This document shows, piece by piece, positions 101-6,776 of a DNA stretch of 64,000 nucleotides. The DNA is from Pseudomonadota bacterium (GTDB lineage Bacteria; Pseudomonadota; Alphaproteobacteria; Paracaedibacterales; CAITNM01). Made by a program: the position numbers and the translations under genes. The notes under the pieces were generated by a model, which searched no databases, was not told the origin of the DNA, and saw only the letters and a program-made list of their open reading frames with translations. The stretch lies in assembly GCA_046309815.1 (NCBI GenBank), contig JBKCOJ010000015.1:43-64042 (forward strand). Direction: 5' to 3'. Every line of letters begins with the position of its first letter. Position 1 is the stretch's first letter.

Positions 101-139
101 AAAAAAAGAATGCACTGTTTACTTTAGTAAACAGCGCAT
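101..139 (-). terminator. Rho-independent terminator of the 169..861 gene
   Basis: stem atgcactgtttac/gtaaacagcgcat (the one mismatch is a G-U pair on the minus strand), followed by a T7 tract on the minus strand. Confidence 0.75.
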
Positions 140-168
140 CTCAGGAAGGAAAGATTAGAATTTATTCT

Positions 169-861
169 TTATTTGTGTACTTTAGGGTCAAAGTGCATAT
201 CTGCGCCATTTCTAAGTACTATTGTAGCGCCATCTTCATAGCTCCATTTACCTGAAGCAGCAACATCACCTTCACCAACCGAAAGTCCGGAACCAAGCTC
301 TACTTTAGAATCAGCCGCAACAGCGATTGTCCCTGCGGGTAATTTATTGCTGAGCGATGCAACCTTCAAACCACCTGCTCCATTTACATTCACGTTACAT
401 GAGCTTGTTCTTGAATTCTTGGTTGTTGTGAATTGACCTGGACCATCAAGACTTAAATCATGAGATCCAGACACTAGACCTAAATTCACATCTGCATCTG
501 CTGTTACGGTGCCGTTAGCATCCATTGTTAGATCAGGAAGATCCATTGCGGCTATGGCTTCTAAGCTACGAGGCTTACCAGCACCATCCTCTGAAAAAGT
601 TACGAGATGAGGACCAAACGAATCAGGTGAAGCAGCCTGCACATTTCCAGATGTAATTTTTACTCGGCCTTCCACAGTACCGCTTAAAATACAATCATCG
701 CTACCATTTTGCCCGACAAAGTTAGCATGACCCTTAACAGTTGAAGCTAACTCTCCACCATCGGTAAATCTTATGACAATCTCAGGATCCGAAGCCGCTA
801 AAAAATTTGAAGAAGATAACATTCCAATGAAAAACAAAACGTTTTTATTAACATTTATCAT
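169..861 (-). CDS. secreted beta-solenoid-like hypothetical protein (paralog 1)
   Basis: 230 aa, N-terminal signal peptide, SD aaggag; G/A/S/D/V-rich; shares FxxGEL, GSxDC, GNVQ and LPxLxM motifs with neighbours. Confidence 0.8.
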   Translation of the reverse strand: MINVNKNVLFFIGMLSSSNFLAASDPEIVIRFTDGGELASTVKGHANFVGQNGSDDCILSGTVEGRVKITSGNVQAASPDSFGPHLVTFSEDGAGKPRSLEAIAAMDLPDLTMDANGTVTADADVNLGLVSGSHDLSLDGPGQFTTTKNSRTSSCNVNVNGAGGLKVASLSNKLPAGTIAVAADSKVELGSGLSVGEGDVAASGKWSYEDGATIVLRNGADMHFDPKVHK

Positions 862-918
862 TTATTTGCTCCTTATTTTAAATAAAAAAATATGTATTAT
901 TTTATAATACTTATTCTC

Positions 919-933
919 TTATAATGAGGTTAA
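919..933. promoter_or_regulatory. CtrA-like box upstream of paralog 1
   Basis: ttat-aatgagg-ttaa, 58 bp upstream of the ATG. Confidence 0.35.
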
Positions 934-1016
934 TAAAGATATAATTTTAAAAAAATAAAATTAATTATTTAATGAATATTTATTTAGATGATTATTGTGA
1001 ATTAATGTGTTTATAC

Positions 1017-1049
1017 AAAAATTCCCCAGTCAAATTCCTGACCGGGGAA
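1017..1049 (-). terminator. Rho-independent terminator of the 1061..1789 gene
   Basis: stem ttccccagtca/tgaccggggaa (G-U on minus strand) plus T tract. Confidence 0.75.
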
Positions 1050-1060
1050 ATATAAAAATT

Positions 1061-1789
1061 TTATCTAGCAGAAACTGGGACTCTCCAGATGCTATCAGAA
1101 CTCAAATTGATTTCGTTTGTTTTAACAGCACCTTGGAAAAGATTACTTCTAACTTCACCGAAACCATTAGCTACATAAAATGCTGCAGCAGTTAATGTTT
1201 TACCCGCAGAGTCATATTTATTTGGAGTGGTGCGAGGTGCACCTAGGTATACAGCGCCATTAAATGTGTTGTCAGCATTAGGAAGAACTGTTGTCGCAAT
1301 AAAGTGCGCACTTAAGTCTGGGCCCATCTCAAGACCACCAGTATATCCGCTTAAATCACCATCAAACGATACGCCTGTGCCTTCGCCGTCACCTAAAATC
1401 GTTAATTTACCATCACCATCAACAGCAGCTAATATTGCACTTTTATGAATAGTAATAGTGCCAGCAGTATCCATATGCAATGATGGAATTGTAACGTTAG
1501 TATTATCTTCTGCTGGATGCAGCTCATCATCAGCAAGAAGCTCCAATGTACCGCCACTCATTGCGATATCCCCGCCGAAACGATCCATATTATACACTTG
1601 CACATTGCCTGCGTGCAATTCTGCCTCGCCAGTAAGTGAACCTGTGAAAAGACAGTCACCCGAACCGTTAAAGATAATACCACCAGTAATTGGAGCATCA
1701 AGCTCACCGTTATTAAAATTATACTCAACAGCAGAGAAAGCGGTAGAAGTACCTAGTGCTGCAAGTAGCATTAGTTTGTGAATTTTCAT
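1061..1789 (-). CDS. secreted beta-solenoid-like hypothetical protein (paralog 2)
   Basis: 242 aa, signal peptide MKIHKLMLLAALGTSTAFS, SD aaggag; DLSGYTGG resembles an autotransporter passenger repeat. Confidence 0.85.
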   Translation of the reverse strand: MKIHKLMLLAALGTSTAFSAVEYNFNNGELDAPITGGIIFNGSGDCLFTGSLTGEAELHAGNVQVYNMDRFGGDIAMSGGTLELLADDELHPAEDNTNVTIPSLHMDTAGTITIHKSAILAAVDGDGKLTILGDGEGTGVSFDGDLSGYTGGLEMGPDLSAHFIATTVLPNADNTFNGAVYLGAPRTTPNKYDSAGKTLTAAAFYVANGFGEVRSNLFQGAVKTNEINLSSDSIWRVPVSAR

Positions 1790-1847
1790 TATAAACTCCT
1801 TTAGAAAAATTGTGTTTCCCTCTAAAGATGAGTGTAAATTTCTTTAT

Positions 1848-1862
1848 TTAAGATAAGATTAA
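1848..1862. promoter_or_regulatory. CtrA-like box upstream of paralog 2
   Basis: perfect ttaa-gataaga-ttaa, 59 bp upstream of the ATG. Confidence 0.45.
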
Positions 1863-1924
1863 TATTTTATATTAATAATTGATTTTTTTATGCCGAATTA
1901 TGAATTTTATATTTTATTTTGCGT

Positions 1925-1955
1925 AAAAAAATCCAGCCAGAAAAATCTGGCTGGA
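1925..1955 (-). terminator. Rho-independent terminator of the 1985..2728 gene
   Basis: perfect 10-bp stem tccagccaga/tctggctgga plus T7 tract on the minus strand. Confidence 0.8.
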
Positions 1956-1984
1956 AATTACAAACGCTAAATCATTAGCTAGGT

Positions 1985-2728
1985 TTAGAGTTCACCGTAA
2001 GTACCAACAATGAAACCTTGTGACCATTTTGTGCTACCAATGTTAATTGTGCTATTAGGAGTTACGTACATATCAGTAGCAGCAGCCAGGACACCAGCAT
2101 CAACATTCACACTAGCTGTTATGTTGTTAAACTGTAATTTATTACCAGAACCAGCACTAGCATGAGATGTAGGAGCTACACTTACAGTTGCTTCGCCACC
2201 AAATGTAGAAAGAGCAGCAACTGGGAATTTTGTAGCCGCAGCGATTTTTACAGCTGCAGAAGCATCAACTCCACCAGTGTTAGCGCTTAAGTCTTTTAAT
2301 GTGAATTCCGAACCAGTTAAAGTAACAAGAGCAGAACCTGAAAGAGCGTCTAAGTCTACATCAGCTGTTGCAGCAATTTCAGCAGCATCAGCATCAGCAA
2401 AAATTGGCTCAGGGCTAACGCTTACGTTTAGCTTAGAACCTGATTTTAATTCAATATGCTTACCTGAACCCACCAAACTAGCATTACTATAATCTGCAAC
2501 ACCATCTGCATCCAGAACAACGTGACCATCAGAGTGAGCAGATGACCCAAGAGTAATTTTAGCGTTCTCGCTAGTAGGGTGCAAAACAACTGCAGCTCCT
2601 GAAACGCCAGAAATAGCAGAATCCCACTCAGCACCGTCAGCAAAATTGATTGTTACATTATCGCCTACAGAAAAAGCTGTTGAAGAAGCAAGAGCAGCAA
2701 CTGCCAATAACATTTTTAAATTTTTCAT
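1985..2728 (-). CDS. secreted beta-solenoid-like hypothetical protein (paralog 3)
   Basis: 247 aa, signal peptide MKNLKMLLAVAALASSTAFS, SD aaggag; very Ala/Ser-rich; ATADVDLDALSG matches ADADVNLGLVSG in paralog 1; DLSANTGG. Confidence 0.85.
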   Translation of the reverse strand: MKNLKMLLAVAALASSTAFSVGDNVTINFADGAEWDSAISGVSGAAVVLHPTSENAKITLGSSAHSDGHVVLDADGVADYSNASLVGSGKHIELKSGSKLNVSVSPEPIFADADAAEIAATADVDLDALSGSALVTLTGSEFTLKDLSANTGGVDASAAVKIAAATKFPVAALSTFGGEATVSVAPTSHASAGSGNKLQFNNITASVNVDAGVLAAATDMYVTPNSTINIGSTKWSQGFIVGTYGEL

Positions 2729-2794
2729 TTTAATACTCCTTTAAGTAATAAAAAAATATAAATTGATAACAAAATATAATTTACGTTAATAACG

Positions 2795-2809
2795 TTAACA
2801 AAAAGTTAA
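2795..2809. promoter_or_regulatory. CtrA-like box upstream of paralog 3
   Basis: g-ttaa-caaaaag-ttaa; reads as the full TTAA-N7-TTAAC consensus on the minus strand, 67 bp upstream of the ATG. Confidence 0.5.
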
Positions 2810-3003
2810 TATACCGCAATAAAAGGGGTGTTTTATTTGCTATTATTGATACAAGCCGTTAACGCTATCAACAATTGTTATATTATTTGTTTCTGTTTAA
2901 TAAACAGTAAATATAATTAAATAAAAAAAAAATAATAAATACATATTATTTATGTATTTAATGTATATCCTCGCACTAGACCCTCACACCTGCTTCGCAC
3001 GCC

Positions 3004-3074
3004 AGGATGACAGAAGGGGAAAATACAGGCTTAGGATGAAGGAAAGGAAAAATACAGGATCAAGATGACAAGGA
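3004..3074. repeat. degenerate 29-bp tandem repeat (~2.4 copies), RPE/WPE-like GGATGAC ends
   Basis: aggatgacagaaggggaaaatacaggctt / aggatgaaggaaaggaaaaatacaggatc (23/29 identical) / aagatgacaagga. Confidence 0.6.
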
Positions 3075-3116
3075 ACGAGATCACGTTCGTACCAATGGGC
3101 AGTTAGCTCTCTCAAC

Positions 3117-3223
3117 GTCTCCCTGGAGCACAGCTCCCGTCATGGTCCAGTTCTATAATATCAATAGCTATGCACTGGACGTGTTCCCGTTCTTCAACGG
3201 GACTTCGTTTTCAACGGGGTGTC
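3117..3223. repeat. multi-hairpin palindromic element (REP/RPE-like)
   Basis: imperfect terminal IR gtctccctg...cggggtgtc enclosing hairpins ggagc/gctcc, gtccagt/actggac and tcccgtt/aacggga. Confidence 0.5.
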
Positions 3224-3245
3224 TATTTTTTATGTTACGGAGTAC

Positions 3246-3326
3246 CTACTGCAGGTTGCCAAATTGTGTGTGTTTGCCGTCGAAGAAGAGTTTGACAGCA
3301 CCAACAGGGCCTTGACATTTCTTAGC
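3246..3326 (-). pseudogene. dnaB: remnant of the 3' end of replicative helicase dnaB
   Basis: translates AKKCQGPVGAVKLFFDGKHTQFGNLQ*, matching the DnaB C-terminal AKQRHGPxGxVxLxFxxxxTxFxNL* motif with decay; no start codon or upstream homology. Confidence 0.7.
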
Positions 3327-3352
3327 TTTTTTGGAGCCAGTTGTGGAATTAT

Positions 3353-3385
3353 AAAAAAACCTCGATCAGAAAATCTGACCGAGGT
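3353..3385 (-). terminator. Rho-independent terminator of the 3409..4266 gene
   Basis: stem acctcgatcaga/tctgaccgaggt (G-U on minus strand) plus T7 tract. Confidence 0.8.
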
Positions 3386-3408
3386 CTAAAGCGAGGCATA
3401 ATAGTCAA

Positions 3409-4266
3409 TTAGTTAGCAACACCCGCACCTAAAATGTCACGATCCCAAACAACATTGTTACGTAACCATAGAGTAGAGTTGTTTTCGAACATCAAGGTAC
3501 CTGTGAATACATCACCTGCGTCACCTTGAGCTGGAATAGTTGTATTACCGGCAACTTCTAGAATAGCGCCATTTTCTACAACAACTGCACCAGGAGCTGC
3601 ACCAGCTGTAGCCGCAACAACTTCTAACAAACCACCGTCTTTTACTGTTGTTTGACCAGTTGTTAGCTTACTTAATGCTGAGGCACCAAAGTGTGTTTCA
3701 CCATAAACGTTGATAGGATTTGACGCAGTTGACAAATCAGCAGGAACAGTAACACCGATATAGTCAGGATCTGTAACATCACCTGAATACAAATTCAATG
3801 CACCACTACCGCAACCAAGGCCACTTATTGTTACAACTGTGTTGCTGTTAGCAATAACATAACCATCTGTTTGCATGTGCAAAGTAGGAAGTGTAATGTT
3901 GTGAAGATTATCATGTGCTGCCCCATTAGTTAGAACTTCTACCACTACATGATCACCGTCAACCACATCACCTTCTGGGGTTACATCAAATTTAATTGCT
4001 TGAGGCATTTCGTCAGTAGGCCCGTTAAATTGAGCTTTACCACCTTTAATTTTCAAACAAGTCATTCCTGATTCATTACCAGTAAATTTTACTGTACCGG
4101 CATATATCTTATGATAATTACCTGAGTACGCAGCACTGACCTCAGAAGATTCCCCACCATCAACACGGATGTTCATATGATCACCTTCACAAGCAGTCAT
4201 AGTATTGCAGTTTGATACCGCTATCAAAGAAAGCAAAGACAAACTTAATTTTTGAATTTTTCTCAT
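3409..4266 (-). CDS. secreted beta-solenoid-like hypothetical protein (paralog 4)
   Basis: start moved to ATG 4266 (SD aggaagg, signal peptide MRKIQKLSLSLLSLIAVS); DGGE; NITLPTLHM matches NVTIPSLHM in paralog 2; C-terminal LWLRNN matches IVLRNG in paralog 1. Confidence 0.8.
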   Translation of the reverse strand: MRKIQKLSLSLLSLIAVSNCNTMTACEGDHMNIRVDGGESSEVSAAYSGNYHKIYAGTVKFTGNESGMTCLKIKGGKAQFNGPTDEMPQAIKFDVTPEGDVVDGDHVVVEVLTNGAAHDNLHNITLPTLHMQTDGYVIANSNTVVTISGLGCGSGALNLYSGDVTDPDYIGVTVPADLSTASNPINVYGETHFGASALSKLTTGQTTVKDGGLLEVVAATAGAAPGAVVVENGAILEVAGNTTIPAQGDAGDVFTGTLMFENNSTLWLRNNVVWDRDILGAGVAN

Positions 4267-4336
4267 ATTTATTTTCCTTCCTAAATATTTTTGTTGAAAA
4301 TTCAATAAACCATTTGATTTATTAACATCTATCAAC

Positions 4337-4632: not shown

Positions 4633-5196
4633 ATGATGCGACAATTATTTTTTGTATTGCTAATTATCTTGATGGGTACCGACGTGAAATTAGCAAGTGC
4701 TAGCCTTGAAGAAGGCGATGTTATTCTAGGTTCAGAAAGCCAACGACAAGCACATCCCGCCCCACCTTCAACTACAAGTTCTCAAATTAGTAGCCCTGCG
4801 CTTGAATTATTTAATAATGATTACGTAAGTAACGTTAGAGATTTGTTGAATGCTCGCTGGTTTTTTAGAAAAGTAGCAAACTGCAATGAAGCTGCCGGAA
4901 ATACATGCCTATATTGTAGCGCTGGGGCTCCAGCTGTTGCTGCGGCTATTAACCCTTTTTCCCTGCTAGCGTCACATGTTATTACTTGCTTTGGGTTAAG
5001 CGCTCTTGGCGTACACGTAACCCTTATCGGCATTGCAAAATGCAGTGCGCGCGAAGAAACAGAAAGAGAAGCACAACTTAGTGATTTAGCAAAAAGAGTA
5101 GGTTTTCAAGTCGTGTCCTTACAACCAACTATAACTGACGATAGCAATGATCAAGCACAGATTGGCGGTATTAGTCCACAGAATATGATACGATAA
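4633..5196 (+). CDS. hypothetical exported/membrane protein
   Basis: 187 aa ORF, hydrophobic N-terminus, Pro/Ser linker, Cys-containing hydrophobic hairpin. Confidence 0.65.
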   Translation: MMRQLFFVLLIILMGTDVKLASASLEEGDVILGSESQRQAHPAPPSTTSSQISSPALELFNNDYVSNVRDLLNARWFFRKVANCNEAAGNTCLYCSAGAPAVAAAINPFSLLASHVITCFGLSALGVHVTLIGIAKCSAREETEREAQLSDLAKRVGFQVVSLQPTITDDSNDQAQIGGISPQNMIR

Positions 5197-5259: not shown

Positions 5260-6318
5260 TTATTGCAGAAATTTTTTAACAACATCGACTTCCTGAGGAG
5301 GTAGAGCCGGATATGTTATCGCATCTGGCGTTTGCGGCCATGACGTTGTAAGGTTTGCTTGCACAAGCTGATCAACAAATACTTTATGCATCGCATTCAT
5401 TGCATCGTTGTTATAAATAGCAGCTGGAAGCACGGAAAGAATTTCTGAAATGGAACTTGTGGATTCGCCCGGAACGATCATGAAGCCTTTATTCGCTTGT
5501 ATTATTTTTATAACAGCTTTTAGAGCTGAAGGTTGTCCAAACTGAAAATCGAAGAACTCAAAGTCTTTATCTTTTTCTAGACCTTTGTCTTTTAATACTC
5601 TTAAGAAAGCATTGGAGACAAAATCTAGCTTGCTGTTTTTATGCGCATTTGGGGCACGTCCTGTGCGCGGACCATTGGTGATGAGAAGCTTATATCCGGT
5701 ACGCTTTTGAAATTCAGCTATTTCTTCTGCTAATTTTTTTGCATTGCGCGTGCTAAATGTCTTCCAACCACCATTAGGTAGTTCGGCATCACCCGCTAAA
5801 ATAACACCAACCTTGGCATCGTTTAAACGAACAGCTGATGCATCTTCCTTTTCTAGTGCTTCAAAAGACATTGTATGTAGCACACCAAGTGTTGGCAGCA
5901 GGGTTAAGTGATTTTGCTGAGCAATATGTTGGATTTTTTCATCAATCGTGTGCTGAGGCATTGTGATATATATGTTGTGAAGGCTTTTCATTGAGTCAAA
6001 CCACTGGTGCACACACAGCAATACTTTTACGTGTTGAGGAACCTCTGACTTAGCTAAAGAGATACCAAATTGACCTGCCGTTATAATTGAACAAGGTTTA
6101 TTAAGATCTAAATCTTGTATCTTGGCGTTAGGTTTCTCAATGACATTTATTTCGGGATAGTTGGACGCGATTTCGTTAACAAGAGCGTTAATCATCGCCA
6201 TCTCACCAACTTTGCTTTTATCATAAACCGCGTATATCGTGTGGCGATCTTCATTATCTATTGATGCACATCCAATGAGTACAAAACCAAGAATAAGAGT
6301 AAGAATATTTTTAATCAT
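5260..6318 (-). CDS. ELM1/GtrOC1-family putative glycosyltransferase-like lipoprotein
   Basis: ITNGPRT and VPGESTSSISE resemble ELM1-family motifs; lipobox LIGC; SD gaggtg before ATG 6318. Confidence 0.6.
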   Translation of the reverse strand: MIKNILTLILGFVLIGCASIDNEDRHTIYAVYDKSKVGEMAMINALVNEIASNYPEINVIEKPNAKIQDLDLNKPCSIITAGQFGISLAKSEVPQHVKVLLCVHQWFDSMKSLHNIYITMPQHTIDEKIQHIAQQNHLTLLPTLGVLHTMSFEALEKEDASAVRLNDAKVGVILAGDAELPNGGWKTFSTRNAKKLAEEIAEFQKRTGYKLLITNGPRTGRAPNAHKNSKLDFVSNAFLRVLKDKGLEKDKDFEFFDFQFGQPSALKAVIKIIQANKGFMIVPGESTSSISEILSVLPAAIYNNDAMNAMHKVFVDQLVQANLTTSWPQTPDAITYPALPPQEVDVVKKFLQ

Positions 6319-6326
6319 AACACCTC

Positions 6327-6776
6327 TCACTTTTTATTGGGTTCTAAACTTTTTCCAAATCCTCCGAACACATCACGCATCACTGAACTTTCATAACCAG
6401 TGGTTGGCGTGCGTTCTTTTGATACTTTAACTTCTTCTCCTTGCACACCTTTTTGCTGTTCAAGTTCTCGCACAATGCCCTTTTCATCTAATACTACTTT
6501 TATGATCAATTGATCAACCACCTTAGGCATGAAAAAAGATGTTGTTTCCGTTTTGCGGTAAATGTAATACCAGTTGCTCCACTTCTTTCCCTCTACTGGG
6601 AATAAAGAAGTGGTGGATGGGCTGCCTAACACATCTTGGACTGTTTCTTGAGTGCTAACATCAACTTTGATTTTATCAACCTGTATTTCTTCGGGATTAA
6701 ATCCACGATGGTCAATGGTAGGGTAACAACCTGCCAAAATAAGGATCAGCATCCCTAACCAAAAATATGATCGCAT
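6327..6776 (-). CDS. bamE: outer membrane protein assembly factor BamE (SmpA/OmlA)
   Basis: lipobox LAGC; VQDVLGSPS and WYYI motifs. Confidence 0.9.
   Translation of the reverse strand: MRSYFWLGMLILILAGCYPTIDHRGFNPEEIQVDKIKVDVSTQETVQDVLGSPSTTSLFPVEGKKWSNWYYIYRKTETTSFFMPKVVDQLIIKVVLDEKGIVRELEQQKGVQGEEVKVSKERTPTTGYESSVMRDVFGGFGKSLEPNKK

Follow-up and report, generated by a model that had tools for sequence, protein, structure and literature searches.

The first 4.3 kb of a 64,000-nt stretch of alphaproteobacterial DNA (contig JBKCOJ010000015.1, positions 43 to 64,042; the whole stretch is called the window below) carry four minus-strand genes in the open reading frame (ORF) listing, p1 to p4 from left to right (Table 1). 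On balance, their products are probably exported, non-enzymatic binding or anchoring modules that derive from autotransporter passengers and have no beta-barrel of their own. They belong to a sharply delimited, unnamed offshoot of the beta-helix theme of the passenger-associated transport repeat (PATR), and not to a new kind of system. The window is nearly the whole of contig C15 of a 1.55-Mb genome (G000; 16 contigs, 38% G+C).

The four had first been noticed as same-strand genes for acidic, exported-looking proteins, and the ORF listing, N-termini and composition all agree. The mature proteins have isoelectric points of 4.3–4.7 and consist to 52–64% of G, A, S, T, V, and D. Their N-termini have 1–3 Lys or Arg residues, a 10-residue hydrophobic window with a Kyte-Doolittle value of 1.9–2.4, and a small-x-small site; by this heuristic, all four window proteins, and all 11 of the own-genome members listed, have a Sec-signal pattern (n-region, h-region, small-x-small). 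For p4, whose ORF spans 3409–4335, the internal ATG at 4266 was chosen as the start, the equivalent of the Met at which its orthologue in a congeneric locus (L032) begins. The gaps between genes range from 196 to 680 nt. Each of the recurring motifs named in the preliminary description can be read in the translations: RFTDGGE, NFNNGE, NFADGAE, and RVDGGES near the mature N-termini; GSDDC and GSGDC; GNVQ in p1 and p2; LPDLTM, IPSLHM, and LPTLHM in p1, p2, and p4; ADVNL..SGS and ADVDL..SGS in p1 and p3; DLSGYTGG and DLSANTGG in p2 and p3; KLP, VLP, and KFP; and a Trp 8–23 residues before the C-terminus in every one.

Similarity among the four was found both by BLASTP and by profiles. p1 and p2 align with an expectation value (E) of 7e-10 over 114 residues. 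p1 matches the family profile at E 1e-63, being itself a seed member, and p3 is found at E 1.1e-12 (2838 ORFs) by a profile of seven own-genome copies from which it had been left out. p4 was reached neither by this seven-copy profile nor by iteration within its own genome; it was found at E 1.4e-13 (376 ORFs) by the profile that followed, for which 34 sequences were used, congener copies among them but again not p4. Used as a query, p4 matches the same congener ORFs as profile A1 does (e.g., G005:C9, G002:C26, G011:C24, and G009:C1), and a direct hhalign comparison of A1 with p4 alone is modest (50% probability, E 1.6e-4). Judged from these matches, p1–p4 are all homologous paralogs of one family. 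In the topology of a FastTree reconstruction from 45 domain copies they fall into four clades, each with orthologues from the congeners G006 and G010, so the duplications that gave rise to the array should predate these species.

The family had not been recognized at first sight, and Pfam and NCBIfam give it no name either: for p1–p4 there is no substantial match in the former and none in the latter. p3 has a marginal Shr-like Pfam match (E 1e-4) that overlaps its signal peptide, and a sequence-profile search of the PDB gave nothing better than E 0.33. Against 1.84 billion representatives, profile A1 has matches to 33 clusters at E ≤ 1e-3, and against 5.8 billion proteins it has seven. A broader family profile, A2, has matches in 10 of 13 congeners and in none (0/1) from the sister genus; its matches elsewhere in the order fall for the most part in open frames of great length. 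When a tree is built from GlyS, with the sister genus as root, G000 and the nine other genomes that have barrel-less members group in a single clade (Shimodaira-Hasegawa-like support 0.94–0.97), and the four genomes outside it have no members on this single-gene tree, save for an autotransporter in G012. As far as these searches reach, the family is confined to one subclade of one genus. No description of barrel-less single-unit PATR proteins was found in the literature, judging mostly from titles and abstracts, nor any of NHL proteins in the Holosporales, a label carried by some of the metagenome-assembled genomes (MAGs) whose GlyS is about 41% identical to that of G000. Between 0.96 and 0.99 of the sampled words of the locus were recovered in 18 metagenome runs, of which 14 may themselves be its source; 16 are from lake, fresh, drinking, or other water and two are labelled fungus metagenome. 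The array locus is stable within the species.

Counted across its own genome, the family is considerably larger than the array. A2 has 15 matches there, corresponding to 14 genes, since a 127-nt contig overlap divides one gene into two of these matches. Seven of these genes have no NHL part: p1–p4, in which a Pfam scan found no NHL repeats (PF01436); a gene of 303 aa with which C1 begins; one of 346 aa on C14, extended by a tail of 120 residues; and a 419-aa gene on C10, the N-terminal half of which has no family match. The products of the other seven are NHL beta-propeller proteins, 436–1315 residues long, in which the domain comes last, at the extreme C-terminus. Pfam confirms the PF01436 repeats in six of them, and in the seventh (C14:121567-122529) NHL-type repeats were judged by eye from the translation. 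The same order, NHL propeller and then family domain, is found by Pfam in all nine long members from congeners, and in a further congener protein (P0032) the domain is N-terminal to a PEBP domain. Of the original proposal of a lineage-specific, stand-alone family, the lineage-specific paralogs remain, but half of the own-genome genes are fused behind propellers. Most members end in a motif of the type L-x-L-G-x-x-x-W at the extreme C-terminus. In an alignment of 56 family sequences no column is invariant, and conservation reaches 90% at three Gly columns only.

Family genes also lie at or near six contig ends of G000 (C3/C4, C4/C14, C1, and C10). The left end of C3 and the right end of C4 share the 127-nt overlap, which splits one NHL-plus-domain gene; the left end of C4 and the right end of C14 carry two different family genes with their last 537 nt 90% identical. 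Near-identity of this degree between the copies at the ends accounts for the contig breaks, and the domain copies concerned may undergo gene conversion.

The beta-solenoid-like fold originally suggested is supported by structure prediction. An AlphaFold2 model of mature p2 (56 sequences; predicted local distance difference test score, pLDDT, 94.1; predicted template modelling score, pTM, 0.90) and one of p4 (44 sequences; pLDDT 85.2, pTM 0.82) are both all-beta, with runs of short strands of 3–9 residues. In Foldseek comparisons with the PDB, neither model has a row at E ≤ 1e-3 (best E 0.29 for p2 and 0.083 for p4). The weak rows are mostly beta-helices or solenoids, among them tapirin, a C-terminal fragment of the IcsA passenger, VacA p55, Ag43, TibA, Hbp, HMW1, and pectate lyases. 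The ESM Atlas contains p2 itself, and its structural neighbors there, at template modelling scores (TM) by query of 0.63–0.72, are right-handed beta-helix, PATR, ShdA, Vat, and pertactin/Pmp clusters; ranked by features, the top row (0.90) is an autotransporter cluster, 13% of whose members have PATR. A single right-handed beta-helix domain of about 200 residues in each of p1–p4 is the best explanation of these models. A complex prediction for two copies of mature p2, made with the A2 alignment and without controls, scored 0.00 against a mark of 0.42 and weighs neither way.

Several lines lead from this domain to autotransporter passengers. PATR is described as the repeat of a classical autotransporter subtype (PMC8111173, citing Doyle et al., 2015), and the distant matches of A1 are PATR proteins: P0016, then P0034 and P0036. 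In P0016 (3393 aa) there are 22 PATR stretches; A1 matches it with a full-sequence E of 5e-35, and the aligned unit G.v.v.s...G.g..l.lnGG.L....a..lp..vm...gt....g..v.L..lsG.G.Lt occurs some twenty times in it; P0036 has a single matching stretch (E 7.7e-5). Within the genus, a 2561-aa open frame of G012 (contig C6) has both a PF03797 barrel and PATR, and in its passenger about nine near-full-length stretches match the iterated family profile consecutively (full-sequence E 1.8e-23, best stretches 7e-8). In G001, a stand-alone member of 244 aa (family E 1.3e-28) passes the TIGR02601 model with 24.7 bits at a cut-off of 19.85; a second member adjoins it, and both are directly upstream of, and on the same strand as, a 940-aa autotransporter with PATR and barrel. 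The family domain is best explained as a diverged copy of a PATR-type unit of about 190 residues from type Va passengers of the same genus. The strands and motifs first likened to autotransporter passengers in general are indeed passenger-related, and can be respecified as a diverged PATR unit.

A number of observations weigh against this reading. p1–p4 are themselves below the Pfam and NCBIfam cut-offs for PATR, and PF12951 finds nothing at E ≤ 1 anywhere in the genome; the cut-off is reached only by relatives, namely the G001 stand-alone member and the autotransporters of G012 and G001. Single A1 stretches on P0016 are weak (best E 3.5), the significance of the whole arising because 20 or more repeats are summed. 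A1 alone missed the G012 passenger, and the tail of its match list includes a helix-hairpin-helix protein (P0035, E 5e-5) that is probably a false positive. Among 15 barrel-bearing frames fetched from eight genomes of the genus, G000 included, just one has a family-profile match at E < 1e-3. The signal peptides are heuristic calls throughout, and the support for expression, described below, is thin: few exact contigs, from two libraries of one study.

No barrel, two-partner secretion (TPS) domain, or partner transporter had been seen near the array, and Pfam and genome searches agree. p1–p4 have no PF03797 barrel at E ≤ 1 and no haemagglutination/TPS domain in Pfam; there is no Pfam autotransporter barrel or ShlB/TpsB in the window; and a search of the whole genome for TpsB (ShlB, PF03865) gave nothing at E ≤ 0.01. 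VirB4 was not found in the genome. A single secretin (PF00263) is located among mreBCD, PBP2/rodA, and transporter genes, with no genes of a type II secretion system (T2SS) adjoining, and there is one T2SSF-like gene followed by three ORFs without a family match. The lack of a translocator nevertheless holds for the window and the surroundings of the array only, as the genome does have one autotransporter barrel: its sole PF03797 match is on another contig, at C5:283299-284051.

The gene concerned (G000:C5:283236-284432; L132:3237-4412, minus strand) encodes 392 aa, with an N-terminal passenger of about 120 residues that is of low complexity and rich in Ala, Gly, Ser, and Thr. All 14 genomes of the genus encode one barrel or more, and in most of them there is a barrel gene of similar size, about 390–430 aa. 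The four distant-clade genomes without barrel-less members have three to five barrels, and nine of the ten family-bearing genomes have one or two. Such an inverse relation was considered as a sign that the family had replaced barrel proteins, and was rejected: G001 has nine barrels as well as family members and is nested within the family clade on the GlyS tree, and with this exception and one gene tree the pattern is taken to be largely phylogenetic.

Gene order is conserved around the array in congeners. In one whose GlyS is 84% identical, the order is glyS, bamE, an ELM1-like gene, a gene for a small membrane protein, p4, p3, p2, a 201-aa ORF, and p1. Next after the array come pyruvate kinase, miaA, and mutY in both G006 and G010, with no barrel there; the arrangement in G010 is the same, a 314-aa member preceding pyk. 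Contig C1 of G000 opens with its 303-aa family member, followed by pyruvate kinase, and on this synteny C15 probably joins C1, although no sequence overlap was found between them. The array, first counted as four genes, all confirmed here, would then have a fifth member. Between G000 and a G006-like MAG, positional orthologues are 41% (p1), 32% (p2), 43% (p3), and 40% (p4) identical, compared with 84% for GlyS, 76% for BamE, 61% for the ELM1-like protein, and 54% for the small membrane protein, a contrast that marks the family as fast-evolving at the sequence level.

Two of these neighbors in the window deserve a note. Divergently placed beside p4, at 4633-5196 on the plus strand, is a gene for a 187-aa protein with a signal- or anchor-like N-terminus, a hydrophobic segment, and no family match, 54% identical in L032; it may or may not be linked to the array. 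Beyond it, next to bamE and glyS, is a minus-strand gene (5260-6330) for a lipoprotein-like protein of 356 aa, 61% identical in the congener, with a sub-threshold match to mitochondrial fission ELM1 (25.5 bits, cut-off 27).

Each of the four array genes is followed on its own strand by a hairpin and T run (Table 1), and they therefore look like separate transcription units. A terminator scan gave seven terminator-like sites, compared with 2.8 ± 1.4 in shuffles. The A+T-rich region upstream of p3, which probably includes its promoter and 5′ leader, is 68–70% identical over 232–264 nt to the regions upstream of p3 orthologues (L032/L119 and L024/L116) and 79% identical over 97 nt to that upstream of the next family gene in L032 (blastn); the scan's best sigma-70-like match is here, at 2871-2842.

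Table 1. Array genes, associated signals, and the positional orthologue of p1. Positions are those of the window except where a locus is named.
Feature	Position	Strand	Remarks
p1	169..861	-	230 aa; signal-peptide-like N-terminus and one family domain, ~200 aa
p2	1061..1789	-	242 aa; signal-peptide-like N-terminus and one family domain
p3	1985..2728	-	247 aa; signal-peptide-like N-terminus and one family domain
p4	3409..4266	-	285 aa; same family, most divergent of the four
Terminator-like hairpin	109..140	-	29 nt past p1 stop codon; 14 pairs, then T run
Terminator-like hairpin	1022..1049	-	12 nt past p2 stop codon; 12 pairs, then T run
Terminator-like hairpin	1932..1955	-	30 nt past p3 stop codon; 10 pairs, then T run
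Terminator-like hairpin	3357..3387	-	22 nt past p4 stop codon; 14 pairs, then T run
A+T-rich region upstream of p3	2729..2940	-	probable promoter and 5′ leader
p1 positional orthologue	L032:9128-9817		41% identical

Part of the 680-nt gap between p3 and p4 is duplicated sequence: about 325 nt (3003-3326) match, at 86% identity, the 3′ end of dnaB together with the spacer downstream (G000:C7:60431-60755); the minus strand still reads ..QGPVGAVKLFFDGKHTQFGNLQ*, resembling the C-terminus of DnaB. A 29-nt tandem repeat is located at 3004-3061 within this stretch, which is missing from the corresponding place in L032. In the gap as a whole, no Rfam family reaches its gathering score (at E ≤ 1 there are matches to the p4 terminator alone, and weak ones), a six-frame search found no family pseudogene, and the folding is not unusual (z +0.49 and +1.77). 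Exact metatranscriptome contigs, all from two libraries of one study, were found on p4 (3747-3995 and 3966-4031) and on the p3–p4 spacer (2961-3151 and 3298-3460); bins of RNA runs without cover carry no weight in this comparison. They are weak evidence that p4 and the spacer are transcribed, because metatranscriptome libraries can contain DNA.

As to function, only glycines and hydrophobic positions are conserved, which points to a structural or binding module and not to an enzyme. An exposed attachment module would fit the C-terminal place behind NHL propellers, the Trp-ending motif, the rapid turnover, and the expansion in a small genome. We infer from this combination that the proteins are exported and exposed and that their role is in binding. 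Export through Sec would come first, and the beta-helix would then fold in the envelope, where it could act as an adhesive stalk or attachment module. In the NHL fusions the helix would hold the propeller; stand-alone copies would bind the same partner, in the envelope or on the host side. Rapid sequence turnover would on this account reflect exposure to a host or predator.

An unlikely but serious alternative is that these proteins are abundant in the periplasm and do not pass the outer membrane at all. Envelope-filling or stage-specific periplasmic proteins have been described from the infectious forms of Holospora, and the Holosporales label among the GlyS relatives at about 41% identity is in keeping with a similar arrangement here. 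So are Sec-type N-termini on proteins without a recognizable outer-membrane translocator of their own, in a genome where TpsB and VirB4 were not found and the secretin and T2SSF-like genes are orphans without a T2SS cluster. However, exposed proteins engaged in interactions would better account for orthologue identities of 32–43% alongside 84% for GlyS, for the expansion to 14 genes, and for the NHL-propeller fusions. If the periplasmic account were correct, the finding would reduce to a well-delimited new domain family deserving a Pfam entry.

It is improbable, to a greater degree, that p1–p4 are self-assembling subunits of a surface layer or appendage, in which the helix domains would assemble as a lattice or a filament and the NHL versions decorate it. 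The coexistence of several cargo-less copies with cargo-bearing copies of the same C-terminal module, the conservation of the L-x-L-G-x-x-x-W motif in most members, and the fixed order of the four orthologue groups could all be read in this way, but independent terminators speak against stoichiometric co-expression.

An extension of the anchoring-module reading can be entertained with a similarly low expectation: the helix of about 200 residues and its Trp motif might together be a barrel-independent display module that attaches or exports NHL cargo by docking to the envelope. The 392-aa barrel could be the docking partner, in trans, and cargo-less copies may form a base layer. In that case, the passenger and the translocator of an autotransporter would have come to be encoded by separate genes in this lineage.

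A role as secreted carbohydrate-active enzymes, with a helix of the pectate-lyase type, is very unlikely. Pectate lyases, alginate lyases, and phage depolymerases do appear among the weak Foldseek rows, but among 56 members no polar residue is invariant or nearly so, the three Gly being the only such positions; Pfam finds no lyase or hydrolase match, and the sequence links lead to adhesin-type PATR passengers.

It is scarcely credible that a single classical autotransporter gene has decayed here, leaving the four ORFs as fragments of a pseudogene interrupted by stop codons, even with a domain related to passenger units, the split bma loci described in Brucella (PMC8111173) as a precedent, and a contig that stops 210 nt past p1, so that downstream sequence is missing from the assembly: every ORF has its own signal-peptide-like start and strong terminator hairpin, gaps of 196–680 nt separate them, they belong to four separate clades with intact orthologues in the same order in G006 and G010 (FastTree topology), the array precedes pyruvate kinase, miaA, and mutY and not a barrel in both congeners, and C1 starts with the fifth member and then pyruvate kinase. 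The possibility of fragments raised in the preliminary description can be set aside on these grounds.

If the four genes do encode exported anchoring modules, some 14 genes of a 1.55-Mb genome would be devoted to one unnamed, fast-evolving exported domain, a good candidate for the contact surface of these uncultured freshwater alphaproteobacteria with whatever they inhabit. Within one genus, the same passenger unit is found in four settings: inside an autotransporter, next to one, alone, and behind NHL propellers. These amount to a natural experiment on whether a PATR-type helix can be displayed without a barrel of its own.

Among known systems, the tapirins of Caldicellulosiruptor (PDB 6n2b, 6n2c, 4wa0) are likewise not autotransporters and have C-terminal beta-helix adhesin domains; in the Foldseek lists a tapirin comes first for p2 and within the top four for p4. 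They come from Gram-positive bacteria, and with E values of 0.1–0.4, TM of about 0.2–0.3, and 11–13% identity the likeness is one of fold class only. The chlamydial Pmp and rickettsial Sca proteins are expanded, fast-evolving autotransporter families of intracellular bacteria. The present family resembles them as a set of multi-copy, divergent, presumably beta-helical envelope proteins in small genomes, and one of the structural neighbors of p2 in the ESM Atlas is a Pmp/pertactin cluster (TM by query 0.71); Pmp and Sca proteins have retained barrels of their own, however, whereas here there is one 392-aa barrel gene for 14 family genes. Comparable too are barrel-less multi-PATR proteins of environmental bacteria such as P0034 (1110 aa, nine PATR stretches, a weak PEP-CTERM match), a distant family-profile match, which also combine a PATR beta-helix with the lack of an autotransporter barrel. 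They are long and multi-repeat, some with a PEP-CTERM-type end, in contrast to single-unit proteins without PEP-CTERM from one subclade. The nearest comparison is with the PATR passengers themselves (PF12951, TIGR02601; e.g., IcsA and Brucella BmaA-C), which share the Sec signal and the right-handed beta-helix look-alikes, and to whose unit the family motif ..SG.G.LT..G....DLS..TGG.. corresponds. From these the family differs in having no beta-barrel, one unit in place of many, a conserved C-terminal Trp motif, and half of its own-genome members fused behind NHL propellers.

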